Notes: generated from the letters alone by a model not told the origin. 64,000 nt of DNA from an uncultured Clostridia bacterium (GCA_944363615.1 CALVUQ010000001.1:44691-108690), one strand, 5' to 3'; shown: positions 37,433-55,803, numbered from the stretch's first letter. A program made the numbers and translations.

Positions 37433-40400
37433 TTACGAATACAGTTCTATAACGGGGGCAGCCGCCTCGTCCAGCAGAATTTCCAAATCGGAAAATTCGA
37501 TGGTGAACGTTTTGGAGGAAGTAAAGCCCAGTCCGAAAGCCGCCTCACCCGCCGTCAGGGAGAAATCGTGGCCCGACTGCTTGCTGTCGTAAATCTTGAC
37601 GTAATCTCCGCTTCGCTCGGAATAATAGTATAATCTGTAAGCGTTGTCTTCACGTATGAACATATACGAATACGTTTTGTTAAGCGCGGCAAACGTGCGG
37701 TTGTCGTACTCGTCGGTAAGATTGCTCTGGTTTTGCGGCGCCCAGACGGAATTGTCGGTAAGCACGCGGTAACCGCTTGCCCAGAATCCTATAAACGAAG
37801 TGTCGGTCCCGTTGTCGACGATGATGCCTATAGCGGGGTCGTACTCGATATTCGCGTCGCTAAGCTCGCTGTCGGTGGTGTAATCCCCCACGTCCGTCTT
37901 ATTGGTTACGCTGAACTTGATTACCGCGTTGTTTCCCACCCCTTCGGTAAAATAAGCGGTGCGGTTGTAATTTGCGGTGTAGACGTTTTCGTCGCGGCGG
38001 CTTGTGTCCCACGCGCTTAAATCCGAATAGATAGTCTGACCGTTAACCGTAACGCTGTTGCCGATCGCATAATGCTTGAGCAAAAACTCAGGCTGCGACT
38101 CTCCTTTGCGGTAATCGTATTCGGCAGTCGGATAGCCTGACTTTTCGACGGTAACCATATACTCCGCCGTTTCGGACAGAATTACGGAATAATTTCCTTC
38201 ACCGTCGGTTTTGCACCTGTAAACGTTGTAAGTGCCTTTTTCGCGGAAAGTCATGACAGCGCCCGCAACGGCTGAGCCGTCGGGAGAAGACGTCACTTTA
38301 CCCGAAAGCGTAAAAGCGTTTTCCGTTTTTCTGAAAATCACCTGGACTAACGACGCGGTTTCTTTGGTCGGAACCGCATAGCCCGACGCCGGGTCGGTAA
38401 TTTCCGCAGAAACGCCGTTTACTTTAAGAGAATCGAAAACGTAGCCGTCTTCGGGATAGATATACAGCGTTGCCGAGTTACCTGTTTCGGGAATCGGTGA
38501 CGGGATGCAGACGTAACCCTTACCCGTTACCGAAACCGCGGGCAGATAATTGCCCGAAGTCCCCGCAGGGCTTGCTTTGACGACATCCTCCGCGTTTTTG
38601 TAAACGCTGTAGTAGGCGTCAGTAAACCTTATCGAGGACGAGTCGGAATATAAGCCCACGGCACACGCGCCCGAGTAGTCCTGAGTGAATTTGTCTTCTT
38701 CGGATATGGCGTAAAGAATGTTACCCTCCGAGACAAGCATAATAAGACTACCCGCCTTATAAAGCGTAAATATCTTGTTACCGCCTAAAGAAGTAAAAGG
38801 AACGTCCAGTAGCGTACCGTCTGTAAACGAGAGGATAAATCCGCCCGAAGAAGTCTGAGACGCCGAAGCGGAGATCTCAAAAACGAAATTGTCGGAATAG
38901 CCGTGAGTGTAAAATACCTCGCGTCTGCCGTTTGCGTCCGTTTCCGCTCCCGTTCCTTTGACCGTCACGCCTTCGGTCATTAAGTCGCCGCATAAACTGT
39001 CGCCGAAATTTTCGCCCGCGCCTACGGACTGATAGCCGCTTGAGGAAAACGCGGGATAAGACGAAATCGCGGTGGCGGAAGAGACGGACGGCGGAAGAAT
39101 CAATATGCCCGAAGTGTATTCGCCCGCAGTTTCCACGCGATAATATGCGGGAAGGATTCTTACCCTTGCAATCGCGGCGGAATACCCCAGCTCCTCCCAG
39201 GAGATGAACGCCTCAGCCGTAAAGCTTACGGTGTTTCCCGAATTTATCACGCCGTCCACTCTTGCGCCGGACGTAATTTTGTTTTCAAACAGCTTATGAT
39301 TGTACGCGTCGATGTAAATCTGTTTGTATGTGCCGTCTTTAGTCTCGAAATAAAATCTGAAATGAGTGTTTTTAGTGAACTTGTTTTTAGCCGTCCAGCT
39401 TATTTTGTCGTCGTAAGCGCGCGCGTAAAAATAAACGCCGTTTTCGGTGAATACGCTTGAAGCCTCTATTTTCACGTCCTCGTAAAGATAGCTGAATTTG
39501 TTTTTGCCGATAATTTCGGGCTCGGAAGTAACGCCGTCTATCATCAGATAGCCGTCCGGCTGACTGCCGTTGGCGTTTTTGTAAGCAGGCTCATCCGCGC
39601 TTGTTTCGCCCGTTTTTCCCAAAATCACGATATCCCCTATCCTGATCTTATCGACGGAAGAATTGTATTTGTCCTGCTGCCTTACCGAAATTTCTATCTT
39701 TTTGACGCTGACGGGCAAAAAGTCCGCGATTACGGAGCCGCCCGGCCGCATGACCGATTTTGCGCGGTTGACACTGTTTTCGTCCGCGGTAAGCCCGCTT
39801 AACACCTTCTGCGTCCCGTCCGCCATGGTAAGCGTGATTTTATCCACTCTTTCAAGAGCATAGTCGTAAGTGTAGCTGGAATAAATCATTACGGCGCGAA
39901 TCTGTTCGGGCTGCGGGAATTCAATAGTAATGACGCTGTCGGAAACGGCCTCGAACTCCAGGTCCTTATCGAAAGGCTGGTACGCGAATCGGTAATCGGA
40001 CAAAAATCTCAGCGTTCCCGCGGTGGCGTTCGTCGCGCTGATACTCACCTTTGAAGTAATATTTCCGTATCCGGAAGCAACCTCGGGAAGCGGCTGAAGC
40101 GAATAAGTCGGACCGTTACCCTGCAGTATATCGAAATCGTAATACGGACTGCTTACGAACTGTACTCTGTCGACGGCAATGGCTCTGCCCATGAAACTGT
40201 CGTTTTCGTTGTTGTTCAACGGATTGTAAAAGGCGTGATAGACGGCAAAAATTTCGTCGCCCGCCTTAACGAAGCTGTGATGTCCCGAACCGGACATGAA
40301 ATCGTATGCGCTGCTTTCAAAGCCTATGCCGATGACGGGATTGGCGTTTGAACGCGTAAGTTTGGTGAAGGGACCCAAAGGAGTGTCGCCCACAGCCTGC

Positions 40401-43400
40401 ATTATGGAATATCTCCTGCTGCCGTATCCGAACGGCGAATATGTAAGATAAAATTTGTTTTTGTGTTCTATGACGAAAGTGCCCTCGTTGATGTTACCGT
40501 CGAACGAGCCGCCCGCGTCGTCGGGTACTTTGACGCCCGTCCAGTCTTTTTCCAGAATACTGCCCGTTTTTCCCGTATAAAGATGATAGTTGGGGGAAGC
40601 CAGTTTGGTCATAGTACTCCAGTCGGGCGTAACCATGTCTTTCATATTAAGCGCCCAGATGTGATTTCCCGAAACGGCGGAGCTTGTATGCTGCGAAAAA
40701 TATATGTAAAAATCACCGCTTTCGGTAAAGAACGGACTTACGTCGATGGACGGCCATATACCCATACCCGTAACCGAATCGACGAATCGGGACCCCTGCG
40801 AGGCAAGCTGATCCGCGAAATGTTTGCCGAAGTTAATGGGCGGAGTGGACTCGTTAAGCAAGTCGCCGTTAAGGTTTGTCGTTGCGCCCGCGCCGTAATA
40901 TCTTTCAGCCGTAACCATTCTGTACGGGCCCACGGGCGTATCGGATATACCTATGCCGAGATATAATCTGTCATATGTGTTTGCGTCCGAAGCGATGTAT
41001 GCGGTACTTGAGGTGCCGCGCTTGGATCTTGCCGAGAAGAATATGAAATACTTGCCGCTTTCGGGATCGCGTATGAGTTCCGGCGCCCAATAGTAGCCGT
41101 CCGACCAGGCTGAAGAAGTGATTTCAAGCGCATTGCCGTCACCGGCCCCGCCGCAACGTTCCCACGCGGACAAATCGCGCGAGCGGTAAAGCGGATATGC
41201 GGAAGATCCTCCCCCGCCGGTCACCGCCATATAAAACCAGCCGCCGTAGACGGGATCTTCCTCCGTAGATACGTACATGACTCCGGGGTCCGCGCCGTCT
41301 ATTTCCAGATCGTTGCGGTAAAACAGCGACGTATCGTAGCTTGTGCCGGCGCCCAGACCGTTTGTCACCGTGCCCATAAAGTCGGTTGCGGAGGTTTCGT
41401 CCGCAATAAAATGAATTTCGATTTCGTTAAGCTTGAAGTTTTTATCCGCGCGGAAAGAGAAAACGTAATCGCCGCCGTTTTCCTCCGTAGCAGTAAGAGG
41501 GTTGCCGTTAAGCGTCACGTAATCCAGTACATATCCGTCAAGCGGACGTGCCAGAACCATAAGGTCCTTAAGGGTGCTTATTCTGTCCGAATCGAATCCT
41601 TCAAGCTGAACCGTGCCGAAAGCGTTGCGAGTAACGGAAACGTCGGTGAACAGCATGCTTTCGATATAGGCGTAATCGGCGTAAATATCGACAGCGGAAA
41701 ATTCCGCGCCGAAATCCGCAGAATCCGATTTTGCAGCAAGACCGTATACGCAGTTTCCGTCCAGTCCGTCCACGCGCACGTCGTAGCGGTTTTCCGCGCC
41801 GCCCTCGCTTTCGGTATAATAAACGCAGATATAATTTTCGTATTTTATGATTTTAAAGCCGTTGTCGTAATTTAATCCGATTCCGTCAATCTTTTCAATC
41901 AATGCGCCGTTTGCGTAAACATATACCCCGTCGGAGCCATAGATTACCGTGGCGGTAATCTTTCCGTTGGAGGCCGTGAATCCCGCGCCGCCCGCGCTTA
42001 AGGACGAGATATCGATTTTACCCTCCGCAACGGCGTAAGGACTGACAAAATTCTTTTTGAAAACGCTTTCTTCCCCAACCCCCGCGGCGAAAAGTTTTTC
42101 CTCTCCGTCGAAAGTTCCGCTGAACTTAACGCCGTCGAAGTCGAATGAAGGACGCATGATAACGATGTCTTTTTCAACGTCGTCGTAGTTAAGCACCGCA
42201 CGCAACGAGCAATCGTAATAGCCTTGCGCGTTTACTTTCACTTCGTAAATTCCTTTGGGAAGATCAACCGAATAACCCCCGTACGCATCGGTGGTTACGA
42301 CGGCGGCAGTTTCGCCCGTTTGTTCGTCGGAAATTTCTATCGTAAGATCCGAAACGGGTAAATTTTCGCCGTAAGTGAAAACGCTGCCCGACAAATTTAT
42401 AGCCGATTTTTCGGGTCTGAAAGTGACGGACACCGAAATATCCTCAGTTACCGTAACGTCTGTAAAACCCGTAAGATCGATAAAAATCGTATTATCGCCG
42501 TAAGAAAGGCTGTATGGCACGTATCCCGGCTGCGGAGTATAATAAATTCTTACATTCTTGCCGTAGTCTACGTATTCGGACTCCGCGTACGCCGTGCCGT
42601 TTTCCGCGGCCAAAACGGTGACCTTGTGCTTTTCTAAAGAGAACACGCACTCTATTTCAACATCGTAATGTATGTCGCTTAACGAAAGCACGCCGCCGTT
42701 TAATTCATCTATACGCTCCTGTCCGTTGATAAGTAAAGAAGTCAGTTCGTAATGAAGGGCCGCCTGGACCGAAATATCCAGACTGTCCCCGGGAATCACC
42801 GATTCCGACGAAGGCGTAACTTCCCCTTCTCCCGTAACGCTGACGGATACGTTGTATGCCGAAACCGCGGTAAAGGAAACAGATATTAAAATATCGCCGT
42901 TTACGGTAAGCGTATATTCGCCGCCCAAAGAAATCCCGCTTACGTCCAGATTCTGAAAATCGCTGCCGTCGGGCTTGCTGACTTTTACCGAACCCACGCG
43001 GTAATCCGTATCGGGCTTCAGGGTGAGGACGATGTTTCCGCCGCTTTCCACGCGGTTTTTATCCACCGTGACGCTGCCGTTGGTTTTGCCGGTCCTGTCG
43101 GGTATTACCACGGTGTCCACGGAATAAACCTCCGCTTCGGGCGTCTGCTCGTCTATGACGAACACTGCCGACAGTGAAATGTCGGAGCTGATGTTATGTA
43201 TGGTAAATGTGTTGTCAGTAATAAGCGAAGAGCTTAACTCGTGTACGCCCGAGGAATCGGTATAAATCGCCTTTTCGGTTTTATAGCCGCTTTCGGGGAT
43301 AAGCCTTACAGTAAGCGAATCCCCTTTCGTAAGCGTATATTTGCCGCCTATGTCGATATTGCCGCCCGAGGTCTCCTCTATCGTGACGTAACATGTCCCG

Positions 43401-43501
43401 GTATCGGTCGGCTCGTTTTCTTTGGGCGGACTGCACGCGAAACACGCCAAAACAGCAAGGCACAATAATGCCGTCGTAACAAAAAATAACTTCCTCTTCA
43501 T
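37433..43501 (-). CDS. 2022-aa multidomain surface lipoprotein with central GH43 catalytic domain
   Basis: Signal peptide with Cys lipobox (LAVLAC). Four to five ~85-aa Ig-like repeats. Two carboxypeptidase-regulatory-like domains. GH43 core at about aa 725-1125 (YWAPELI, NINEGTFVIEHKNKFYLTYS, GSGHHSF). CBM- and ConA-like beta-sandwich regions at the C-terminal side. Confidence 0.85.
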   Translation of the reverse strand: MKRKLFFVTTALLCLAVLACFACSPPKENEPTDTGTCYVTIEETSGGNIDIGGKYTLTKGDSLTVRLIPESGYKTEKAIYTDSSGVHELSSSLITDNTFTIHNISSDISLSAVFVIDEQTPEAEVYSVDTVVIPDRTGKTNGSVTVDKNRVESGGNIVLTLKPDTDYRVGSVKVSKPDGSDFQNLDVSGISLGGEYTLTVNGDILISVSFTAVSAYNVSVSVTGEGEVTPSSESVIPGDSLDISVQAALHYELTSLLINGQERIDELNGGVLSLSDIHYDVEIECVFSLEKHKVTVLAAENGTAYAESEYVDYGKNVRIYYTPQPGYVPYSLSYGDNTIFIDLTGFTDVTVTEDISVSVTFRPEKSAINLSGSVFTYGENLPVSDLTIEISDEQTGETAAVVTTDAYGGYSVDLPKGIYEVKVNAQGYYDCSLRAVLNYDDVEKDIVIMRPSFDFDGVKFSGTFDGEEKLFAAGVGEESVFKKNFVSPYAVAEGKIDISSLSAGGAGFTASNGKITATVIYGSDGVYVYANGALIEKIDGIGLNYDNGFKIIKYENYICVYYTESEGGAENRYDVRVDGLDGNCVYGLAAKSDSADFGAEFSAVDIYADYAYIESMLFTDVSVTRNAFGTVQLEGFDSDRISTLKDLMVLARPLDGYVLDYVTLNGNPLTATEENGGDYVFSFRADKNFKLNEIEIHFIADETSATDFMGTVTNGLGAGTSYDTSLFYRNDLEIDGADPGVMYVSTEEDPVYGGWFYMAVTGGGGSSAYPLYRSRDLSAWERCGGAGDGNALEITSSAWSDGYYWAPELIRDPESGKYFIFFSARSKRGTSSTAYIASDANTYDRLYLGIGISDTPVGPYRMVTAERYYGAGATTNLNGDLLNESTPPINFGKHFADQLASQGSRFVDSVTGMGIWPSIDVSPFFTESGDFYIYFSQHTSSAVSGNHIWALNMKDMVTPDWSTMTKLASPNYHLYTGKTGSILEKDWTGVKVPDDAGGSFDGNINEGTFVIEHKNKFYLTYSPFGYGSRRYSIMQAVGDTPLGPFTKLTRSNANPVIGIGFESSAYDFMSGSGHHSFVKAGDEIFAVYHAFYNPLNNNENDSFMGRAIAVDRVQFVSSPYYDFDILQGNGPTYSLQPLPEVASGYGNITSKVSISATNATAGTLRFLSDYRFAYQPFDKDLEFEAVSDSVITIEFPQPEQIRAVMIYSSYTYDYALERVDKITLTMADGTQKVLSGLTADENSVNRAKSVMRPGGSVIADFLPVSVKKIEISVRQQDKYNSSVDKIRIGDIVILGKTGETSADEPAYKNANGSQPDGYLMIDGVTSEPEIIGKNKFSYLYEDVKIEASSVFTENGVYFYARAYDDKISWTAKNKFTKNTHFRFYFETKDGTYKQIYIDAYNHKLFENKITSGARVDGVINSGNTVSFTAEAFISWEELGYSAAIARVRILPAYYRVETAGEYTSGILILPPSVSSATAISSYPAFSSSGYQSVGAGENFGDSLCGDLMTEGVTVKGTGAETDANGRREVFYTHGYSDNFVFEISASASQTSSGGFILSFTDGTLLDVPFTSLGGNKIFTLYKAGSLIMLVSEGNILYAISEEDKFTQDYSGACAVGLYSDSSSIRFTDAYYSVYKNAEDVVKASPAGTSGNYLPAVSVTGKGYVCIPSPIPETGNSATLYIYPEDGYVFDSLKVNGVSAEITDPASGYAVPTKETASLVQVIFRKTENAFTLSGKVTSSPDGSAVAGAVMTFREKGTYNVYRCKTDGEGNYSVILSETAEYMVTVEKSGYPTAEYDYRKGESQPEFLLKHYAIGNSVTVNGQTIYSDLSAWDTSRRDENVYTANYNRTAYFTEGVGNNAVIKFSVTNKTDVGDYTTDSELSDANIEYDPAIGIIVDNGTDTSFIGFWASGYRVLTDNSVWAPQNQSNLTDEYDNRTFAALNKTYSYMFIREDNAYRLYYYSERSGDYVKIYDSKQSGHDFSLTAGEAAFGLGFTSSKTFTIEFSDLEILLDEAAAPVIELYS

Positions 43502-46382: not shown

Positions 46383-47239
46383 TGCGCTTTTCTCCCGAAA
46401 TACTCCGCGCGTACGGCCTCTATGAGTTCTTCTTCGTTTATTATCGACGGATCGACGTTGAATCCGCGCTCGTTAAGGCCTGCGGCAAGCGCCGTAACCG
46501 CCGGCACGTCGATTTTTAGCGACTTAAGCAACTCGCGGGAGCGGAAAAGTTCGCGCGGCTCGTACACTCCGTAAAGCTTGCCCTGCGACAGAACGGCGAT
46601 ACGGTTACAGTATTCCGCCACTTCGTCCATGTTGTGCGAAATCATGATTACGCTTTTGCACGTTGCGGCAATGTTTTTCACCAGTTGCATGATCTCGGTT
46701 TTGCCCCTTGGGTCCAGTCCCGCGGTAGGCTCGTCCAACACGAGATATTCGGGCTTCATGGCTATTACGCCCGCAAGCGCGACCCTGCGCATCTGTCCGC
46801 CGCTCAGTTCAAAAGGCGAACGGTCCTTGATGGACGAAAAGTCAAGTCCCACCAGGCCTATGGCCTCTTCCACGCGCTTTGCAATTTCCTCTTCGGGAAG
46901 TTTTATGTTCTCCGGTCCGAACGCGACGTCCTTATACACCGTTTCGGCAAACAGCTGATACTCGGGGTACTGAAAGACCATGCCCACTTTGCTTCTCAGC
47001 TTTTTGAAGTCGATTTTCTTGGGCCTCAGATCCATGTCGTCCACGAAAATAACGCCCGACTGAATTCGCGTCAAAGCGTTGAGATGGCTTATAAGCGTGG
47101 ATTTGCCGCTGCCCGTGTGTCCGATTACGCCCAAAAAGTCCCCTTCGCGTATTTCAAGGCTTATGTCATTTAACGCGGCCGTGGCAAATGAGGTTTTCTG
47201 ATTGTAAACGTAATTAAGATGTTCGATTTTTATCGGCAT
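46379..47239 (-). CDS. ecfA2: energy-coupling factor transporter ATPase EcfA2
   Basis: Walker A GHTGSGKST, signature LSGGQMRRVALAG, Walker B LVLDEPTAGLDP. Confidence 0.9.
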   Translation of the reverse strand: MPIKIEHLNYVYNQKTSFATAALNDISLEIREGDFLGVIGHTGSGKSTLISHLNALTRIQSGVIFVDDMDLRPKKIDFKKLRSKVGMVFQYPEYQLFAETVYKDVAFGPENIKLPEEEIAKRVEEAIGLVGLDFSSIKDRSPFELSGGQMRRVALAGVIAMKPEYLVLDEPTAGLDPRGKTEIMQLVKNIAATCKSVIMISHNMDEVAEYCNRIAVLSQGKLYGVYEPRELFRSRELLKSLKIDVPAVTALAAGLNERGFNVDPSIINEEELIEAVRAEYFGRKAQ

Positions 47240-48057
47240 AGTTCTTCAATCAATTGTCGGTCGGTGATAATGTCGTCGGACAGCGGAACACCCGCTTTTT
47301 TAAGCGCGTGCGCAACGCGTACGGCAAGCGGAACGTTAAGTCCGATGGACTTAAGCTCCTCCTCCCTGAGTAATATTTCCTTACCGCCCTGCATGTATAT
47401 TTTACCGTCGTTCATGACGACAATACGGTCGGCAAGCAGCGTTTCCTCCATAAAATGAGTGATCATTACAACCGCCATCTTTTCGTCGCGGTTAAGCTTT
47501 TCGATTGTCTTAAGCACTTCGGCCCTGCCTTCGGGGTCCAGCATGGAAGTGGACTCGTCCAGCACGATGACGCGGGGTTTGACGGCAAGCACGCCCGCGA
47601 TTGCGACGCGCTGCTTCTGTCCGCCGCTCAGCCTGAAAGGAGTCCCTTCGCGGTACTCGTACATTCCCACGCTTTTAAGCGCCCAATCCACGCGTTTGCG
47701 GATTTCCTCGGAAGGAAGCCCGATGTTTTCCGGGCCGAAAGCTACGTCGTCCTCGATAATGGTTGCGACCATCTGGTTGTCGGGGTTCTGAAAGACCACG
47801 CCCACCGTTTTTCTTACGTCGAAAAGTTCCTTGTAATTCTTTGTATCGTGTCCGTCAACGGTAACGGTGCCGGAGTCGGGCTCCAGAAGTCCGTTCATCA
47901 GTTTTGCGATAGTGGATTTGCCGGAGCCGTTGTGCCCGACGATCGCGACGAATTCTCCCTCCTCCACGGAAAGGCTTACGCCGTTCACGGCGCGCTGCTC
48001 GGACTCGTCGCCGCGGTTATAGGTATAATATACGTCGCGAAATTCAACAATGCTCAT
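47230..48057 (-). CDS. ecfA1: energy-coupling factor transporter ATPase EcfA1
   Basis: Walker A GHNGSGKST, signature LSGGQKQRVAIAG, Walker B IVLDESTSMLDP. I use the ATG at 48057. Confidence 0.9.
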   Translation of the reverse strand: MSIVEFRDVYYTYNRGDESEQRAVNGVSLSVEEGEFVAIVGHNGSGKSTIAKLMNGLLEPDSGTVTVDGHDTKNYKELFDVRKTVGVVFQNPDNQMVATIIEDDVAFGPENIGLPSEEIRKRVDWALKSVGMYEYREGTPFRLSGGQKQRVAIAGVLAVKPRVIVLDESTSMLDPEGRAEVLKTIEKLNRDEKMAVVMITHFMEETLLADRIVVMNDGKIYMQGGKEILLREEELKSIGLNVPLAVRVAHALKKAGVPLSDDIITDRQLIEELCR

Positions 48058-48167
48058 GCCTAATATTATAGCGGTGCGGACGAAATTTCGCAAGTCAATT
48101 AGCGCGCATAAGGGCGGATTTTTAATAATATTTTAAAAATAATATAATATACTCAAGCAAAAAACAA

Positions 48168-48196
48168 TTGCTTAATGAGTAAATATATGTTAAAAT
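48168..48196 (+). promoter_or_regulatory. sigma-A type promoter upstream of the Soj-like gene
   Basis: TTGCTT, 17-nt spacer, TAAAAT, inside a 207-nt AT-rich divergent intergenic region. Confidence 0.5.
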
Positions 48197-48264
48197 GTTA
48201 GAAAGATTCATTCATAAATAAAAAACGCTTTCATTACAGTTAAGCTTTACAGCGGTGAGGTATT

Positions 48265-49080
48265 ATGCATAAAATCATTGCGATAGCCAATCAGAAAGGC
48301 GGCGTGGGTAAAACCACTACCTGCGTCAATCTTGCCAGTTATCTGGCACTTATGGGCAAAAAAGTTCTTGCGGTGGACATCGACCCTCAGGGCAACTGCA
48401 GCAGCGGCTTCGGGGTGGACAAAACCAAAGTAAAATATTCAACATACAGCGTTCTTTCGGGAGAAACGGACGCCAAAAACGCGATTATTCCCACACTGGT
48501 CAAAAATCTGGACATCATGCCTTCCAACATCGACCTTGCGGGCGCGGAGGTGGAACTTGTGGGCGTCGAGGATCGCGAAAAAGTACTGAAAAAAGTGCTT
48601 TCGCCGCTCAGGAACAGTTACGATTACATACTGATAGACTGCCCGCCGTCGCTTGCGTTGCTTACGGTAAACGCGCTGACCGCGGCAAACTCCATACTGA
48701 TCCCCATTCAGGGCGAATATTACGCGCTGGAAGGATTAAGCCAGCTGATGAACACCATTCGTCTTGCAAAGAAGATTCTTAATCCTCAGCTTGAAGTCGA
48801 AGGCGTCGTGCTTACCATGTACGACAGCCGCTCAAGATTAGTGCAGAACGTGACGGAGGAAATTTACAAATTCTTCGGCAAAAAAGTATTCGACGCAAAA
48901 ATTCCCAGGAACATCCGTCTGGGCGAAGCGCCCTCCTACGGCCTTCCCGTCATGTTGTTTGAACCTAAGTGCGTGGGCTCGCTTGCGTACAAGGCTTTGG
49001 CGGAGGAATTCTTAACGCGCAACAACGATACGTTCAAAAAAATCACGGATCTCAAAATACTGAAATACAAGGCTCAGTAA
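48265..49080 (+). CDS. soj: ParA/Soj family chromosome-partitioning-type ATPase (no adjacent ParB)
   Basis: Deviant Walker A NQKGGVGKTTT, then DIDPQGN, IDCPPSLALLTVNAL and IPRNIRLGEAPSYG, colinear with B. subtilis Soj over the full length. Confidence 0.9.
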   Translation: MHKIIAIANQKGGVGKTTTCVNLASYLALMGKKVLAVDIDPQGNCSSGFGVDKTKVKYSTYSVLSGETDAKNAIIPTLVKNLDIMPSNIDLAGAEVELVGVEDREKVLKKVLSPLRNSYDYILIDCPPSLALLTVNALTAANSILIPIQGEYYALEGLSQLMNTIRLAKKILNPQLEVEGVVLTMYDSRSRLVQNVTEEIYKFFGKKVFDAKIPRNIRLGEAPSYGLPVMLFEPKCVGSLAYKALAEEFLTRNNDTFKKITDLKILKYKAQ

Positions 49081-49110
49081 CGGCTGCTTTTTTAATGGCC
49101 GTATTTTTCC

Positions 49111-49968
49111 ATGGAATCTGCGTCATCCGACAATAAAAAAATATTTTTAAAAAAGCCTAAGCTGCTTTACATAGGTTCTTATAAACCGAAAGCGGGCTGG
49201 ATGAATTCCGTTCACTCGCATGATTTTTGCGAAATCATGTTCCTGAAAGAAGGCAGCGGCCGCTTTAAAGCGGAAGAAAAAGAATACCCGGTCACCAAAG
49301 GCGACCTGATCGTGTGCAACCGTGGGGTTAATCACTGCGAATACATCGACGATACGGAGCCGCGTCAGACGGTTTTTCTGGGCGTTTCCCGCATAAAAAT
49401 AAACGGTTATCCCGAGGACTGCCTTTTAAAGGATTCTTTCGTGAAAATCGCGGCCACCGGGGTTTTTTACGACCAGCTGTGCCAGTATTTTGAGCAGCTT
49501 TTACTTGAAAAAGAAGTAAAGTCCCCCTACTTCGGCATAATCAGCGAAAGTCTGTTGCTTATCATCGTTACTTACGTTTTAAGGCTTACGTCCGACGGCG
49601 CGGATAAATATTTCGAAAGCAAGAAGACTTACGTCGAAGTAAAGGAATTTCTGGACAATAACTTTACCACCATCGACACCATAGACAACGTTTGCAGAAG
49701 TCTGTACATAAATAAGTTTTATCTTACGCATTTATTCAAGGATACTTTGGGGATTCCCCCGCTTAAATATCTCATACAAAAGCGCGTATCGCTTGCGAAA
49801 AAACTGCTTGTGACCACCGATAAACCCATTAACGACATCGCCAAAGCCTGCGGTTATCTGGACATCGCTTACTTTTGCAGGGTTTTCAAAAAAGTGGAAA
49901 ACATGACTCCTTTGGACTATCGCAAAAAAATGTCCGTTTCCGCACGATACGACAAGGACGAAAAATAA
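49111..49968 (+). CDS. AraC family transcriptional regulator (N-terminal cupin sensor domain)
   Basis: Cupin-like region (HSHDFCEIMFLKEGSG) plus a C-terminal double HTH (INDIAKACGYLDIAYFCRVFKKVENMTPLDYRKK). Confidence 0.85.
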   Translation: MESASSDNKKIFLKKPKLLYIGSYKPKAGWMNSVHSHDFCEIMFLKEGSGRFKAEEKEYPVTKGDLIVCNRGVNHCEYIDDTEPRQTVFLGVSRIKINGYPEDCLLKDSFVKIAATGVFYDQLCQYFEQLLLEKEVKSPYFGIISESLLLIIVTYVLRLTSDGADKYFESKKTYVEVKEFLDNNFTTIDTIDNVCRSLYINKFYLTHLFKDTLGIPPLKYLIQKRVSLAKKLLVTTDKPINDIAKACGYLDIAYFCRVFKKVENMTPLDYRKKMSVSARYDKDEK

Positions 49969-50181
49969 TCATAAAAAGCATATAACAAGGAAGAACTTTC
50001 TGACGGAATCGGGACGCGGCCGTAAAGTGAGCCGTACTCACAGTTCCCGCTTAAAAAAATGACGACAGCCGTAAAGCTCTTTATCGTAATAAACCGGCTG
50101 TGATCGTATATTAGACAAAAACAGCAACGCGGAATGCGTTTTACCGTCGGCCTTCTATAGGCAAAATAAAGGAGAATTAAA

Positions 50182-53100
50182 GTGAGTAAAACCAAAATAA
50201 TGAGCAAGAAAAAAATCATTATTTTTTCCATACTTTTATGTCTTGCCATAATAGCCACGTTTTATTTCCTGGGTTGTCACAAAAACGATTTTACCGACGA
50301 AATAAACCTTAACGGATTGAACGAACAGCAAAGCACCGTCAAGCAAAAGCCCGGCGACGGCTCTACCCCTTCCGACCACAGTCCCGCCGATAACTTTGCT
50401 TACGCGCTGTACGACCTTATGGAAGCGGGCAGCTTTGTAGGCGAATCCAGCGGTCAGACCGTTTCTTTGGGTGTAGAACAAAACGTAAAAGCGATAAGAT
50501 ACGTAAACGGCGACGAGGTTTTTAAACGCTCGCTTTCCCACTCCGCTTTCAAATCCGTGGGTGTGGAAATGTTTGTCAGCGGCAAAAATTACATACTTCG
50601 CGACGCCACTTCCCTTAAATCGGTGGACGAAGTTACCTGGGGCGCCGATCCGTACAGGGTCAGCGAGGAAACTTTCAATTCCAAGTTCGGCGGCGTGCCC
50701 AACGGAATAACGGCGTACGTGTTGAACGAAAATTCCATTGTCTCCGCGGAGTTTCTGGGCGAAGAAAACGGAATTTACGCATACCGTTACGTACTGGACA
50801 ACGCGCTTGCAACCACCAAAATCCGCCTGGAAATGCGTACCATGGCGGGGACAAAGACCTTACCCAACTTTGAAGAAGTTGCGCTTACCGTTTACATGGA
50901 CGCCAACTGGCGCATACAGAAAACCGAAACCGCCTGCGTGTACAAAGTGGATATGCTGGGCGGCGTAACCTGCAAAGAATCTCTGACAGAAGTTTTTTCC
51001 GCGATTGGCGAAGGAAAGGAAATCCCCGACGCGGATATTTTCCGTCCCTATCTCGACGCGGAAATCACCGAAGACGACGGCGAATTCACGCCCGACGCCA
51101 TGTATTACCTCACCAACGGCTTCAACGAGTATATGACGGGAAAGCCGCTGAACCTTTCGCTTGAGATAAAGGGCGCGATAAATGCCGTGGGGTCGGCAAG
51201 CGTGGACATCGACGCAAACGACCTTGCCAACATCCGCGCGCGCGTTTTTCTCGACGAACTCAGTTTCGGCGATATAACCCTTAAAGACCTTTTCGTGGGC
51301 TATGCCTCGGGCGAAGTATATGCCGCTCTCGGTGATTTTAAATTCAAAACGACGGTTAACGAGCTTATTGCGTTTATCGACAAACTTATGCCTCTCATCT
51401 CGTCCGAGCCCGTTAGCGTAGGCGATATGCTGTCCTTTAATCCCGACTCTTTGCTTACGAACGCAACTCTTAAGCGCGAAAACGGGTCCGCCGTCGTCAC
51501 TCTTCCCCTTGAACTGGGCAAACTCGACGCCGATATCGAAATCGGATTTTCAGACGGAGATACGGTCGCCTTTACCGGTATTTACGCTTGCGTCAACGGC
51601 CTTGAAGTGTCTGTAAATCCCGTTGATGAGGTTACTGTGCCCGAAACGGGCGACGACTACCTCAGTATAGCGCCGCTACTTAAGCTTATCGACGACGATT
51701 ACAACCTGGCCTTTAAAGCGCGTTTGGGCAAATCCGACGTACAATTAAAATTCAATCTTGAAACCATGGCCCTTGACGCCGCTTACGGCGACCTGCTTGT
51801 AAAATTCGAAAACGACGTATTATATCTGAATTACGGCGACCTTAAAGCGAAGGCCGACTTAAACGACTTACCCGCGCTTATAGAAAAATTCAAGCCGCTT
51901 TTCGTAAACCCGGACGGCACGTATAAACCGGAATTCCTTTCGGATATTTCAAGCTCGCTTAGCGACCTTGACGCCAAGGCGCTTATAAAGCAGCTTACAG
52001 ACAATCTTGATGTCGTTAAAACCGACGAAGGGGTCAGAATCTCCACCGCCGTTATGGGCGCAAACGTAGGAATTAACCTTTACGCGGGCGAAAGCGGTTA
52101 TTCCTTGACCTCCGTATCGCTCTCTTACGGGGATTTGTCGATTGAAGCCGAACCCGCCGAATCGGATGAAATTCCCGAAATATCCCAAAACGATCTTGCG
52201 GAATATAAAAATATCCTCTCTCTTGCAGACATTATAGACGAAAATTACCAAATAAATCTTTCTGCCGCTTTGACCGCGGGTGACCTTTCTTTGAACGCGG
52301 ACCTGTGCATTGACTTAACCACTCTTACCATTACCGCTAAAACTCAGCTTTATAATAACGACCTTTACGTCAAATTTTCCGACGGCACCGTGTATGCTTC
52401 CTTCAAGGGCCTTAACGTTTATGCCGACGTGGACGACATTCAGTCCCTTCTCGACCGTCTTGCTCCGCTTATCGGTGAAAGCTTCTCCTTGGACGGACTT
52501 ACTGACCTTAACATCGACATTGCTTCCGTACTCTCCTCGCTTTCCTTTACCGAATCCGGCAGCGGTCTTATCGCTTCTGTGTCGCTTAGCGGAATAAACG
52601 TTTCCGTTGACTTTACCGCTGAAGCAGACAATCTTAAATTGAGTCGGATTTCCGTTTCCTCCAACGATTTCTCTTTGACCGCCGCGCCTTCAGCCAAAGC
52701 GGATTATTCCGTCATTGACAACGCAGATAAATTCTACAACATCCTCTCTCTTGCGGACATTATAGACGAAAATTACCAAATCAATCTTTCTGCATCGTTG
52801 TCGGGAACCGAAATTGCGATTACCTTAAATCTTGACAGCATGCGCCTTAACGCCTCCGTCGCGGGCGCGGCGATAACTTTTGACATCAACAAGAATACGC
52901 TTTACGCCGCTTACGGCGGGGCAAGAGTAAAGCTCAATCTTGCCGACACAAAGCAAATTCTGGAAAAATTCGGGCCCGTCATCGATAAATTCGATAAAGA
53001 TGGCAAAATAAGCGGATTGTTAAACGGTTTATTAGGCGACAGCGCGAAAAGCTTAAACGTAAGCGATATACTTTCCTCCTTAACCGTATCGGAAGGCGAC

Positions 53101-54756
53101 GGAACATTAAGCTTGTCGCTGAATGTTGCAGGCGTCGATATAGTTGCGATTTTCGCAACAGACGGAGGCGGACTCTCGTTCTCATCGGCTACGATTAACG
53201 CGTCGGGTACAAGTATAAGCGCGCACCTTACCCAAAACATAACGCCGGATCTCGACACGTCGCTTTATTACATGGACCTTAAAGAGTTTACACGGGTTTT
53301 CGGAGACGCTTTGAATAAGCTTGTCACTTCCGAAAATCTCGTCTTCCGCATAAGCGGCACCGTCAGCACGGAAAGCGCGGTTTATACGATAACAAACGGA
53401 GAATTGGTTGTAGGCGGCATAGGCTCTGCCTGCAAAATAAACGCCGACTTTACTTTCGTCAAAAAGACCTCTGACGCAAGCGGAAACGTAACTGAAAAGA
53501 CCAATACTTTGCGCTTTGTCTACGACTTAGACGCACAAGAGGGCTACTTTAACTTTAACGGTATAGAAGGCACCTTCTCCACTGTTGACTATAACGAAAC
53601 GCTGGAAATTCTGAAACAGATATACCACAACATTCCCGAACTTCAGGAGCTTATTTCGGGCATAATACCCTTGTCTGAAGACGGTAAATTCAGTATGCCG
53701 GAGTTTGATTTCACTAAAATAATCAGCTCTCTTTCGCTATCAGACAGCGGAGTGCTTAATGTGGACGTAAACGCTAAGTCAGTGATAGATGTCCTGCCCG
53801 AATCGATAAAATTATCGCTTTCGCTCTCCGATGACGGTGCGCTTAACCTTGATCTTGATGAACTTGTATTGGGCGGCACCTCGGTAAAGCTTTCGGTAAA
53901 CGCTGCGCCTTATGCCAATGCGGACGCGGAAGGCAAATTCGATTACACCCCCGGCGAAAACGCAAGCGACTTTTCTTCCGTCAACACCTTGCTTAAAACG
54001 CTTGCGACGACATCCGCATACAGACATTATGAACTTAACGGTAACCTTAACCTTGATTTAATGGGCTTTATCAACGTTAACGATAAAGTCAAACTGAACA
54101 TTAAAATTGACATTGTAGACGGAGTTACTTACGTTGTTGCCACCCTTACGCGCGAATATGTGTTTGCCGCAAACTTGGCCGGTATGTATCCCTGGAGCGA
54201 TTACAGCGGTACATCCACGCTTTACTACGACGGCGAAACCAAAATGATTTATATTGCAACCGATCATATAAAATCCAAAAGTATCTTGGGCGTCAATTAC
54301 AAAAACGGCGAAGAGCAGATTTACGAAAAATATACCGAAGAAGAATTTTCCGCAGACACACTGAATATTCTTCTCGGAATGCTGCGCTTAAGCTCCAAGT
54401 ATCGGGACATGATAGGAAACGCAAACACCAATACTTCCGCCATAAATATCGAAGATATATTTACCAAATATTCCTACAACGGCACCGATATGTTCACGCT
54501 GAATCTTAACCTCGGCACCCTCACCGACAACTCCCTCAACGACCTTACGGTAAACTTACATCACGACTCCGACTACAACCTGAGCTCCTTAGACGTAAGC
54601 ACCTCGGTGGGCGCGCTTGGAATTGACAAGATGCTGGGCATAAACTTCAGCGCAACGCACGTCGCGCCTTATAACCACGATAACGGCGTTAAGGAACAGG
54701 TTAAACTGCAACCCACCCTGACCGACGGAAACGGCAATCCTCTTTACGGCGATTAA
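50182..54756 (+). CDS. 1524-aa membrane-anchored / lipoprotein-like modular repeat protein of unknown function
   Basis: GTG start lies 8 nt after aaaggag. N-terminal basic region plus hydrophobic helix ends in FLGC. About six ~180-aa modules are each opened by a Y-x-x-I-L-S-L-A-D-I-I-D-E-N-Y-like helix. I see no catalytic or known-domain motif. Confidence 0.8.
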   Translation: MSKTKIMSKKKIIIFSILLCLAIIATFYFLGCHKNDFTDEINLNGLNEQQSTVKQKPGDGSTPSDHSPADNFAYALYDLMEAGSFVGESSGQTVSLGVEQNVKAIRYVNGDEVFKRSLSHSAFKSVGVEMFVSGKNYILRDATSLKSVDEVTWGADPYRVSEETFNSKFGGVPNGITAYVLNENSIVSAEFLGEENGIYAYRYVLDNALATTKIRLEMRTMAGTKTLPNFEEVALTVYMDANWRIQKTETACVYKVDMLGGVTCKESLTEVFSAIGEGKEIPDADIFRPYLDAEITEDDGEFTPDAMYYLTNGFNEYMTGKPLNLSLEIKGAINAVGSASVDIDANDLANIRARVFLDELSFGDITLKDLFVGYASGEVYAALGDFKFKTTVNELIAFIDKLMPLISSEPVSVGDMLSFNPDSLLTNATLKRENGSAVVTLPLELGKLDADIEIGFSDGDTVAFTGIYACVNGLEVSVNPVDEVTVPETGDDYLSIAPLLKLIDDDYNLAFKARLGKSDVQLKFNLETMALDAAYGDLLVKFENDVLYLNYGDLKAKADLNDLPALIEKFKPLFVNPDGTYKPEFLSDISSSLSDLDAKALIKQLTDNLDVVKTDEGVRISTAVMGANVGINLYAGESGYSLTSVSLSYGDLSIEAEPAESDEIPEISQNDLAEYKNILSLADIIDENYQINLSAALTAGDLSLNADLCIDLTTLTITAKTQLYNNDLYVKFSDGTVYASFKGLNVYADVDDIQSLLDRLAPLIGESFSLDGLTDLNIDIASVLSSLSFTESGSGLIASVSLSGINVSVDFTAEADNLKLSRISVSSNDFSLTAAPSAKADYSVIDNADKFYNILSLADIIDENYQINLSASLSGTEIAITLNLDSMRLNASVAGAAITFDINKNTLYAAYGGARVKLNLADTKQILEKFGPVIDKFDKDGKISGLLNGLLGDSAKSLNVSDILSSLTVSEGDGTLSLSLNVAGVDIVAIFATDGGGLSFSSATINASGTSISAHLTQNITPDLDTSLYYMDLKEFTRVFGDALNKLVTSENLVFRISGTVSTESAVYTITNGELVVGGIGSACKINADFTFVKKTSDASGNVTEKTNTLRFVYDLDAQEGYFNFNGIEGTFSTVDYNETLEILKQIYHNIPELQELISGIIPLSEDGKFSMPEFDFTKIISSLSLSDSGVLNVDVNAKSVIDVLPESIKLSLSLSDDGALNLDLDELVLGGTSVKLSVNAAPYANADAEGKFDYTPGENASDFSSVNTLLKTLATTSAYRHYELNGNLNLDLMGFINVNDKVKLNIKIDIVDGVTYVVATLTREYVFAANLAGMYPWSDYSGTSTLYYDGETKMIYIATDHIKSKSILGVNYKNGEEQIYEKYTEEEFSADTLNILLGMLRLSSKYRDMIGNANTNTSAINIEDIFTKYSYNGTDMFTLNLNLGTLTDNSLNDLTVNLHHDSDYNLSSLDVSTSVGALGIDKMLGINFSATHVAPYNHDNGVKEQVKLQPTLTDGNGNPLYGD
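52213..52793 (+). repeat. near-identical 53-nt segments 528 nt apart inside the modular gene
   Basis: 52213-52265 and 52741-52793 match at 51 of 53 positions (atcctctctcttgcRgacattatagacgaaaattaccaaatMaatctttctgc). The offset is exactly 176 codons. Confidence 0.85.
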
Positions 54757-54845
54757 CGACGTTCTCTATTTCCTTGAAATCTTGCATTACGCTTTGTCTT
54801 TTATTCCGATAATAAAACCGACGGAATAGTAAATCTCTTTAAGCA

Positions 54846-55052
54846 TTACCGGCACTTGAACATATAAAAAAGCTTCCGCACCAATACGGAGGCTTTTGTT
54901 TTGTCAGAAACGTTATATCCGGCTTCCTTGAAGGGCTGTATCTTTTTCATCAACTTATTATAATTATCTTTAATCATGGGATAAACTATATTCGTGCCTT
55001 TTTTCTCTTCTTCCGCCTCTTCGGGAGTAACCGGTATATATCAGTTTGCCAT
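54846..55052 (-). pseudogene. small ORF interrupted by an in-frame TGA at codon 4 (or a 3-codon leader ORF plus untranslated RNA)
   Basis: Translation reads ATG GCA AAC TGA, then 64 further open codons in the same frame (YIPVTPEEAEEEKKGTNIVYPMIKDNYNKLMKK...KCR*). The ATG is preceded by aggaaag and a consensus promoter. Confidence 0.25.
54865..54903. terminator. bidirectional terminator
   Basis: 8-bp stem agcttccg / cggaggct (one G-U pair) flanked by an A6 run and ttttgtttt. Confidence 0.65.
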
Positions 55053-55081
55053 TTTGCTTTCCTGCTAAAAAAAGCACTACC

Positions 55082-55110
55082 ATTATATAACGCTTTTTAA
55101 ATGCTGTCAA
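55082..55110 (-). promoter_or_regulatory. consensus sigma-A promoter with no intact gene behind it
   Basis: Minus strand reads TTGACA, 17-nt spacer, TATAAT, an exact match to consensus. Confidence 0.6.
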
Positions 55111-55210
55111 TGGTAGCGCTTAAGTATAATTTTGACACTGCCATTATAGCATATAAAAAATAACTAAATAAGCGCTTAAAACGGCTGATAAAGCGCGGAA
55201 ACGAACGCAT

Positions 55211-55250
55211 TAAAAAAGACGCCTATCCTTTAAGATATAGCGTCTTTTAA
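55211..55250 (-). terminator. terminator of the alpha operon after rplQ
   Basis: 9-bp stem aaaagacgc / gcgtctttt with a 17-nt loop, followed by a T-rich tract on the minus strand. Confidence 0.55.
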
Positions 55251-55290
55251 TTTGATTCCGGTTTCGGCCTCAGTTAAAAGCAACCGACTG

Positions 55291-55803
55291 TTACACCAAT
55301 TCGATTACAGCGAGTTCCGCACTGTCGCCGCGGCGGGCGCCTAATTTAATGACGCGGGTGTAACCGCCCTTTTGTCCCTTCTCCTTACCGCGCTGAGCGT
55401 ATTTGGGAGCATACTCGTTGAAAATCTTTTCGATGAGGGGATGACGGATGTTCTCGGTCCTGGCGATAAAGTTAGCCTTGGACTCCTTTTCCTTTCTCTG
55501 CTCCTGAAGATCGTTGACTTTAGCCATGATTTTGCGGCGAGCGGCAAGTTTCTTTGCTCCGTCGTTGACAAGCTCCACCTTAATATCCTGACCCTTATCG
55601 TTTTTACGGGTTTCGATTTTCTTAACGGTATCGGTATAAGTGTTGATTGCAATGGTGAGGAGCTTTTCGGCGAGTTTGGAAACTTCCTTAGCTCTGGCAT
55701 AGGTAGTCTCGATCTTACCGTTCCATAAAAGCTCCGATACCTGATTTCTCAGCAGAGCCTCTCTCTGGTCGGTCGGTCTGCCTAATTTTCTTTGTAATGC
55801 CAT
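55291..55803 (-). CDS. rplQ: 50S ribosomal protein L17 (expanded, 170 aa)
   Basis: N-terminal LGRPTDQREALLRNQ..IETTYARAKE and C-terminal GGYTRVIKLGARRGDSAELAVIELV are canonical L17 sequences, separated by an extra ~50-aa K/E-rich segment. Confidence 0.9.
   Translation of the reverse strand: MALQRKLGRPTDQREALLRNQVSELLWNGKIETTYARAKEVSKLAEKLLTIAINTYTDTVKKIETRKNDKGQDIKVELVNDGAKKLAARRKIMAKVNDLQEQRKEKESKANFIARTENIRHPLIEKIFNEYAPKYAQRGKEKGQKGGYTRVIKLGARRGDSAELAVIELV

Follow-up and report, generated by a model that had tools for sequence, protein, structure and literature searches.

This analysis concerns a giant gene in a 64,000-nucleotide (nt) stretch of DNA from an uncultured Clostridia bacterium (hereafter the window; all coordinates are counted from its first letter). 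The gene encodes an anchored modular protein of 1524 amino acids (aa), which we read, with moderate confidence, as a length-variable envelope or surface rod or fibril that is extracytoplasmic and has conserved end domains. In the proposed organization, the protein would be held in the cytoplasmic membrane by its N-terminus, and the extracytoplasmic rod or fibril would be a head-to-tail chain of seven domains of ~180–260 aa, comprising an N-terminal domain (N-domain), four modules, a degenerate module and a distal cap. The modules would serve mainly as a length-setting, surface-exposed stalk, with rod length set by module number, and the stalk would hold the conserved cap at a distance from the membrane, within the outer reaches of the cell wall or past it. 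The N-domain may contact an envelope component, while the cap may contact an external ligand. The family and its architecture are undescribed, although the fold itself is known; in the searchable literature on tandem LolA-like domains in Firmicutes and on the Christensenellales envelope, the family was not found described.

The open reading frame (ORF) extends over 50182..54756 on the plus strand, stop codon included, and starts with GTG. A ribosome-binding site, AAGGAG (50169..50174, plus strand), was read directly 7 nt before the start codon. A first-pass annotation, made earlier from the DNA alone, had called this ORF with its 1524-aa product, and both were confirmed here. Additionally, a full-length public protein (P0001) is 99% identical to the query.

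Domain layout and predicted fold

Comparison of the giant protein with itself by BLAST revealed a period of 176–182 aa, with E-values down to 1e-22, and a hidden Markov model (HMM) of the module detected copies at aa 316–491, 492–670, 674–848 and 851–1027. All domains described here are encoded on the plus strand. Module 1 (M1, aa 305–491, 51094..51654) was delimited by the HMM match, hhalign and AlphaFold2 (AF2), which places in it a helix, 6 strands, 3 helices and 5 strands. Module 2 (M2, aa 492–674, 51655..52203) and module 4 (M4, aa 851–1028, 52732..53265) were each delimited by self-BLAST, HMM, AF2 and hhalign, while module 3 (M3, aa 675–850, 176 aa, 52204..52731) is the unit missing from a natural variant, P0002. 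These four modules have unit lengths of 176–187 aa and are clearly homologous, since hhalign paired M1 with M2–M4 at probabilities of 97.6–98.4% and M2 with M3 and M4 at 99.8–99.9%. A degenerate fifth module (CA, aa 1029–1261, 53266..53964) matched M2, M3 and M4 at 79–91% and has the same element order in AF2.

The two ends of the chain are occupied by domains in which hhalign detected no sequence similarity to the modules. The conserved N-domain (aa 57–304, 50350..51093) carries the motifs LEMRTMAGTK and GGVTCxESLTE, with invariant residues E217-M-R-T-M-A-G223 and G260-G-V-T-C264-x-E266, and is the most conserved part of the protein (mean pairwise identity 52%). The conserved C-terminal cap (CB, aa 1262–1524, 53965..54753) is characterized by the motifs DFSSINxLLKTL, YxKYTxEEF and HDxxYNLSSL.

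Two AF2 models were built from 25-sequence alignments, one covering aa 1–850 (mean predicted local distance difference test score, pLDDT, 80.9; predicted template modelling score, pTM, 0.54) and the other aa 675–1524 (mean pLDDT 82.3, pTM 0.65). In the first model, the N-domain occupies aa 68–290 and consists of a helix and 12 strands with inserted helices, with pLDDT mostly 80–95. It is followed by six units that share a common element order of a short helix, 6 strands, 2–4 helices and 5 strands, and the helices between strands 6 and 7 of each unit include one of 14–18 residues. The pLDDT is 85–90 over the module junctions and falls to 53–68 only in the loop after each module's long helix. 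These high junction values suggest that the chain is stiff and continuous, in contrast to beads on a string joined by flexible linkers.

The models and alignments agree with most of the architecture proposed in the first-pass annotation, namely a membrane-anchored, modular, beta-rich protein with a mixed beta domain of ~230 aa after the anchor and modules starting near aa 305, 492, 675, 851, 1029 and 1262, positions at which the AF2 units begin. The proposed count of six modules held in part: four are clear homologues and the fifth is degenerate, but the sixth, now the cap, shares with them only the element order and no sequence similarity.

Foldseek searches of the models against the PDB, read from the best 50 matches listed per model, returned LolA (8cgm, 1iwl, 9azz, 8veh, 8t5t), LolB (8cm1), LprG (3mh8, 3mh9), RseB, EPDR1 (6l9x) and 4eg9 at probability 1.00, with target template modelling (TM) scores of 0.36–0.52 over 168–224 columns; the RseB match 2v42 spans 446 columns. 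LolA-type matches were present in both models, including that of aa 675–1524, which does not contain the N-domain, so the LolA-likeness extends beyond this domain. The models thus predict a LolA-like fold for at least one domain in each. In LolA, 11 antiparallel strands form an unclosed barrel that helices cap or plug, an arrangement which fits the 6+5 strands and inserted helices of the module. Furthermore, the order helix, 6 strands, helices, 5 strands is what we take to be that of LolA-type unclosed beta-barrels with plug helices. The unclosed 11-strand barrel of LolA with its helices has been described likewise (PMC13078400).

The likeness to LolA, LolB, LprG-LppX and RseB comprises a domain of ~180 aa, 11 antiparallel strands, an N-terminal helix and helices that follow strand 6. 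LprG and LolB are likewise tied to a membrane, in their case by a lipid anchor. In contrast, known members of the LolA superfamily consist of one or two domains and 180–320 aa, whereas seven domains are fused here and more than 15 in some relatives. The giant protein also differs from them in having no sequence similarity, no nearby Lol or ABC (ATP-binding cassette) partner and a host that is presumed monoderm. The LolA-type half-barrel, known from small carriers, would here be repeated in tandem to build rods that count between 6 and more than 15 domains.

The first-pass annotation had assigned the modules to no recognisable family. This holds for sequence, as Pfam and NCBIfam gave no match to the whole giant protein and none to LolA, LolB, LppX_LprAFG, MucB_RseB or related DUF models, Pfam gave nothing credible on seven pieces at E-values up to 10, and profile searches of PDB sequences with A1 and A4 at E-values up to 1 and 10 gave nothing. 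It does not hold for the fold, which resembles the LolA/LolB/LprG/RseB half-barrel. Other structural matches were set aside. Those to a sliding clamp, TbpB, the pre-ribosome and the nuclear pore had the best E-values, yet their TM-scores of 0.04–0.14 and root-mean-square deviations above 20 Å mark them as artefacts that arise because repeated sheet-helix units get aligned. Foldseek against BFVD yielded only low-TM, repeat-type matches. PADLOC and PHROGs gave no match to the giant protein, and its identification as a defence-system or phage protein was therefore rejected.

The same searches bear on an earlier, more speculative suggestion that the protein is a groove-type bridge, that is, a bridge-like lipid transport protein of the AsmA/TamB/VPS13 type with a continuous beta-taco groove. 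The N-terminal signal anchor, the long beta-rich body and the conserved C-terminal domain do recall the layout of AsmA-like proteins such as TamB and YhdP. However, among the best 50 Foldseek matches listed per model, the only envelope-transport machine besides the LolA-like structures is LptDE (probability 0.08–0.11), with no TamB-, YhdP-, VPS13- or ATG2-type protein, and no Pfam match to AsmA, TamB or DUF490 was obtained on the pieces even at E = 10. Each module also resembles a plugged half-barrel in that 2–4 helices separate strand 6 from strand 7, and the chain is a series of discrete helix-containing modules instead of a continuous taco. Monoderm Clostridia, among which the hosts are presumed to belong, moreover have no second membrane, and thus no outer membrane to be bridged. 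A groove-type bridge is consequently very improbable.

Module gain and loss in a large family of gut Clostridia

The central part of the protein differs between close strains by whole modules. A public protein, P0002, matches the query at 98.5% identity apart from a single gap of exactly 176 aa (aa 677–852, one module), while P0003 is exactly 176 aa longer than the query. At the DNA level, the first-pass annotation had pointed to a stretch of 53 nt, identical at 51 positions, at an offset of 176 codons between modules 3 and 4. This identity island was confirmed: copy A (52213..52265, plus strand) lies at the start of M3 and copy B (52741..52793, plus strand) at the start of M4, 528 nt downstream, and the remaining DNA of the two modules is 23–35% identical. 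It could further be located as the crossover site of the one-module deletion in P0002, whose junction shows M3-type sequence before, and M4-type sequence after, the stretch encoded by the island. This pattern places the crossover inside the island and identifies it as a substrate of unequal crossing-over. The alignments indicate that module number shifts in whole-module steps by unequal homologous recombination between near-identical module-start DNA. With such whole-unit differences between close strains, the giant protein belongs, as judged from these alignments, with the copy-number-polymorphic repeat surface proteins.

Comparison with a related locus (L001) revealed a second kind of variation. 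The L001 orthologue is 80% identical to the giant protein, while the RpoA proteins of the two loci are 100% identical. The ratio of nonsynonymous to synonymous substitution rates (dN/dS) against L001 is 0.06 for the N-domain, 0.12–0.24 for the modules, 0.08 for the cap and 0–0.07 for flanking housekeeping genes, so that the modules evolve about 3–4 times faster than the two end domains. The cap is 99% identical to that of the L001 orthologue. Close to nt 53,920, where the cap domain begins (~53,900–53,965), nucleotide identity jumps from 55–79% to 92–100%, and beyond this point it remains at ~95% through rplQ, rpoA and rpsD (to 58,331), with a synonymous divergence (dS) of ~0.1 vs 0.5–1.4 elsewhere. 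These values indicate a recombination breakpoint inside the giant gene and a mosaic locus, with the middle of the protein behaving as a fast-changing, recombining cassette between two conserved ends. The exact gain and loss of modules between strains, together with this intragenic mosaic, make an exposed, variable envelope component likely. Such variability is relevant to the tracking of strains, to interaction with phages or the host and to antigenic variation in a gut lineage that is abundant and poorly known.

The family to which the protein belongs is large. A word-indexed search yielded 54 relatives of 1332–2298 aa, none of them named and none with a Pfam domain, and an exhaustive HMM search with the N-domain and three modules yielded 1095 clusters (at the 50% identity level) at E ≤ 1e-3, 728 at 1e-10 and 315 at 1e-30. 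All of these clusters are unnamed and come from metagenome-assembled genomes of gut Clostridia; sources that label the protein at all call it 'hypothetical protein [Clostridiales bacterium]'. The word-indexed search with the C-terminal region A6 returned two fragments only. In GTDB data with one genome per species, the strict N-domain motif was found in 20 species, all represented by gut Clostridia metagenome-assembled genomes from human, sheep, roe deer and other sources and assigned to Christensenellaceae, Ca. Scatosoma and unclassified Clostridia or Clostridiales. Taken together, the family comprises at least 1095 clusters of predicted giant envelope proteins in uncultured Clostridia of the human and animal gut (Christensenellales and relatives) for which there is no Pfam or NCBIfam model.

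Near-full-length members (216 sequences) range from 1300 to 4325 aa, with a median of 1858 aa and 1–13 detectable modules; in the close subfamily, the module count is 3, 4, 5, 6 or 8. The cap is common to 126 of the 216 and ends a median of 7 aa from the C-terminus, whereas a more distant subfamily has a different C-terminal region in its place. Among 18 distant members, Pfam domains were absent except in one, a protein of 4325 aa with a true Listeria-Bacteroides surface repeat at its C-terminus. In P0167, Pfam matches to GldD_lipo, MG4 and others were rejected as summed repeat noise, since no single stretch passes alone, and only Flg_new is real.

Membrane anchor and possible roles of the proposed rod

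The N-terminal anchor (aa 1–32, 50182..50277, plus strand) consists of a basic stretch (SKTKIMSKKK), a hydrophobic helix of 20 aa and the sequence F-L-G-C, which ends at Cys32. AF2 models the anchor helix at aa 4–27 with low pLDDT. The sequence Y-F-L-G-C32 that follows the hydrophobic stretch is atypical compared with the lipobox [LVI][ASTVI][GAS]C. An N-terminal hydrophobic segment is present in 200 of the 216 family members, and a lipobox-like Cys follows it in only 59. We read the segment as a putative signal-anchor helix, possibly lipid-modified at Cys32 in the query's lineage. An LPXTG sorting signal is absent from the query, and the weak motif LPxT[GAN] occurs within the last 60 aa of only 2 of the 216 relatives.

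The composition of the giant protein is dominated by Leu (11.8%), Ser (9.4%), Asp (8.5%) and Asn (7.0%), with 7 Cys residues (0.5%). Its net charge is about -107, and each domain after the anchor contributes -9 to -19. Both the basic N-terminus with a hydrophobic helix ending in FLGC and the acidic, D/L/S/N-rich, nearly Cys-free composition had been noticed in the first-pass annotation. From the positive-inside N-terminus, the acidic and Cys-poor composition, the surface repeat in one relative and the N-terminal hydrophobic segment of the 200 relatives, we infer that the bulk of the protein lies outside the membrane.

An extended cell-surface fibre, as proposed in the first-pass annotation on the basis of the modular beta-rich architecture, was retained as the best functional reading. 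Comparable proteins are the repeat-stalk proteins SasG/Aap, alpha C/Rib and Ebh, which are likewise very large, acidic and Cys-poor, vary in module number between strains by recombination and project an end domain on a rigid stalk, a feature that for the giant protein is predicted from the models. These proteins are built from Ig-like, G5-E, Rib or helical repeats and mostly carry a C-terminal LPXTG or transmembrane anchor, whereas the giant protein has an N-terminal anchor, no LPXTG and a LolA-like half-barrel module.

Several points weigh against reading the protein as a surface rod of LolA-like modules. Classical Gram-positive adhesins are anchored by a C-terminal LPXTG signal and not by the N-terminus, and they are usually most variable at the tip, whereas here the cap is conserved. 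The dN/dS values, all below 1, point to relaxed purifying selection and do not prove diversifying selection. The TM-scores to LolA-type structures, at 0.4–0.5, are modest. Finally, because Foldseek did not report the aligned query residues, the LolA-likeness of each single module was derived from topology, namely from its identical secondary-structure order in the models.

The fold matches also suggest a different role, in which the protein would act as a lipid or lipoprotein relay. LolA/LprG-like cavities would hand hydrophobic cargo outward through the wall, so that one polypeptide would do in a Gram-positive cell what Lol, LprG or Lpt-type transport does elsewhere, and candidate cargo would include a glycolipid, a lipoteichoic-acid precursor or lipoprotein acyl chains. 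LolA, LolB, LprG and EPDR1, all matched at the highest probability, are acyl-chain binders, the membrane anchor adjoins the most conserved domain, and the module junctions appear rigid in AF2. Additionally, each module has near its centre a helical loop of low confidence and variable length, which sits at what we presume to be the position of the LolA lid or plug. Modules that bound lipid would represent a new architecture for moving hydrophobic molecules across the Gram-positive wall, and a relay would be a new kind of envelope lipid transport by concatenated carrier domains, as opposed to polymerised subunits (Lpt) or a groove (AsmA/VPS13). However, a module count that ranges from 1 to at least 13, and changes by one unit between strains 98.5% identical, is unexpected for a conduit of fixed distance, and constraint on the protein is weakest in the modules. 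At 19 family-related loci, the flanks that were read contain no conserved neighbouring transporter or energy source and no LolCDE-type ABC transporter; ecfA1/ecfA2/ecfT, the ABC genes next to the giant gene, are part of the ribosomal cluster. Firmicutes also use the LolA fold in non-transport roles (GerS, SsdC), and hosts presumed to be monoderm offer no outer membrane as a destination. On balance, we regard a relay as unlikely. Its specific form, in which a wall-spanning single chain of LolA/LprG-type lipid-binding domains would link the cytoplasmic membrane of monoderm gut Clostridia with their surface, is quite unlikely on the present models.

Genomic neighbourhood and upstream region of the giant gene

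The giant gene is preceded, on the same strand, by a ParA/Soj-like ATPase gene (48265-49080, plus strand), located between ecfA1 and the AraC gene, and by an AraC regulator gene (49111-49968, plus strand) directly upstream of the region of the giant gene. The three genes interrupt an otherwise conserved minus-strand run of rpsD-rpoA-rplQ and ecfA1-ecfA2-ecfT-truA, between rplQ, which encodes ribosomal protein L17 (55291-55803, minus strand), and ecfA1, an ABC gene of the ribosomal cluster (47230-48093, minus strand). The first-pass annotation had proposed that the ATPase, AraC and the giant protein form one unit, with AraC activating the giant gene through the direct repeat GCCGTAAAG. The shared strand and insertion site are consistent with this proposal. 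The arrangement also recurs at L001, L008 (ParA 99% identical, gene order as in the window) and L009, while L005 has the ParA gene without AraC, beside a giant relative (P0034) that is 37% identical and occupies the same insertion site.

These four linked loci, however, represent the close lineage of the query; rpoA is 89–100% identical in three of them, those whose contigs reach rpoA. At the 15 other family loci, no relative of the window's ParA or AraC was found in the flanks read, and at three of these loci the sole AraC-family gene is unrelated, lies over 3 kb from the giant gene and is encoded on the opposite strand. Moreover, the window and L001 share ParA at 99.6% identity but the giant protein at only 80%, so the two do not evolve together. 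With ParA and AraC confined to the close lineage, homologues of the giant protein show no general linkage to such genes, an outcome that the first-pass annotation had named in advance as refuting its proposal. Comparison of the loci indicates that the giant gene works alone, with ParA and AraC as lineage-specific neighbours and not partners. A three-gene unit under AraC control is accordingly the least credible of the readings weighed here and is extremely improbable. The proposed system dissolves and leaves a large family of predicted giant envelope proteins, unannotated so far, whose building block is unusual and which clearly varies between strains. The window ParA has no adjacent ParB and is an orphan ParA.

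The upstream DNA leads to the same view of the regulator. Two copies of GCCGTAAAG are indeed present upstream of the giant gene (50019-50027 and 50068-50076, plus strand), and, in agreement with the weak promoter noted earlier (no good -35 element), the 213-nt upstream region contains no sigma-70-like promoter with a score of 9/12 or better, which would leave room for an activator. The repeat, however, is absent from the barely alignable upstream regions of the orthologues at L001, L008, L009 and L005, even where AraC is 86% identical, which leaves AraC control without support, though it may operate in this strain; the repeat is probably functionless. The AAGGAG ribosome-binding site and a GTG or TTG start codon are kept at these four loci, and the remaining upstream DNA is not conserved. 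No clear terminator was found between the AraC gene and the giant gene. In the window as a whole, GCCGTAAAG occurs 5 times (25597, 39216, 50019, 50068 and 54742) vs 0.86 expected, and none of 100 shuffles reached 5, for a pattern that was chosen post hoc; the copy at 54742 lies on the minus strand at the extreme 3' end of the giant ORF.

The 15 other loci share no neighbour. Their flanks include genes for sugar-modifying enzymes, spoIIE, spoIIAA-AB-sigF in the opposite orientation, an asparaginase with NUDIX and, at two loci, OmpR-type two-component systems. The OmpR-type response regulator and histidine kinase lie upstream, on the same strand, of two distant members (L006, 5962-7754; L029, 2976-4885), and this linkage could be due to chance or to a lineage-specific regulator.

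The sporulation genes among these neighbours relate to a further possible role, that of an envelope scaffold or spacer, in which a rod within or along the wall would set or sense envelope dimensions or organise wall enzymes, maybe in sporulation. Genomes of relatives carry spoIIAA-spoIIAB-sigF and spoIIE, the membrane-proximal domain is conserved, and the giant gene stands singly in housekeeping contexts. Firmicutes LolA/RseB-like proteins are known to act on the envelope without carrying lipid (bioRxiv 10.1101/2025.01.13.632879; PMC7769602): GerS of C. difficile is an activator of the amidase CwlD (bioRxiv 10.1101/2025.01.13.632879), and the shape of the spore is affected by SsdC (PMC7769602). 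Like the giant protein as we picture it, GerS and SsdC/YdcC of B. subtilis combine membrane anchoring with an extracytoplasmic LolA/RseB fold, and their role is not lipoprotein transport (bioRxiv 10.1101/2025.01.13.632879; PMC7769602). They differ in being single-domain proteins with defined sporulation roles and partners (CwlD), with no tandem arrays or copy-number variation, and no sequence relationship between them and the giant protein was detected. Furthermore, the nearby sporulation genes vary between loci and lie on the other strand or in unrelated operons, and inspection of the upstream region by eye, with no formal test, showed nothing convincing as a sporulation sigma-factor promoter. 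The strain-level length polymorphism also fits an exposed structure better than an internal ruler. By analogy with these proteins, a scaffold or spacer may be imagined, and we give it little credence compared with the exposed surface rod.

Downstream of the giant gene, an intrinsic-terminator-like hairpin with a T-run (54868..54897, plus strand; a consensus match only) is located 112 nt past the stop codon. A matching hairpin on the opposite strand at 54868-54897 makes this a two-way terminator-like element. The spacer that contains it (54757-55290, 530 nt) has only ORFs of 28–46 aa and a perfect TTGACA-17-TATAAT on the minus strand (55110-55082). Its cargo differs in relatives, with an Imm5_like gene at L001 and a 66-aa ORF at L005, which marks a variable spot. 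Rfam gave no RNA family across 47900-55400.

Two other genes of the window deserve mention. A second giant ORF (37433-43501, minus strand, 2022 aa) has an L001 orthologue with GH43, CarboxypepD_reg and a faint Flg_new match; its product probably degrades arabinan or xylan as a secreted or surface enzyme, and the gene is a possible alternative target of AraC. The L17 protein encoded by rplQ has 170 aa, and the 97-position Pfam model spans its residues 17–170, which corresponds to an insertion of roughly 55–60 residues.

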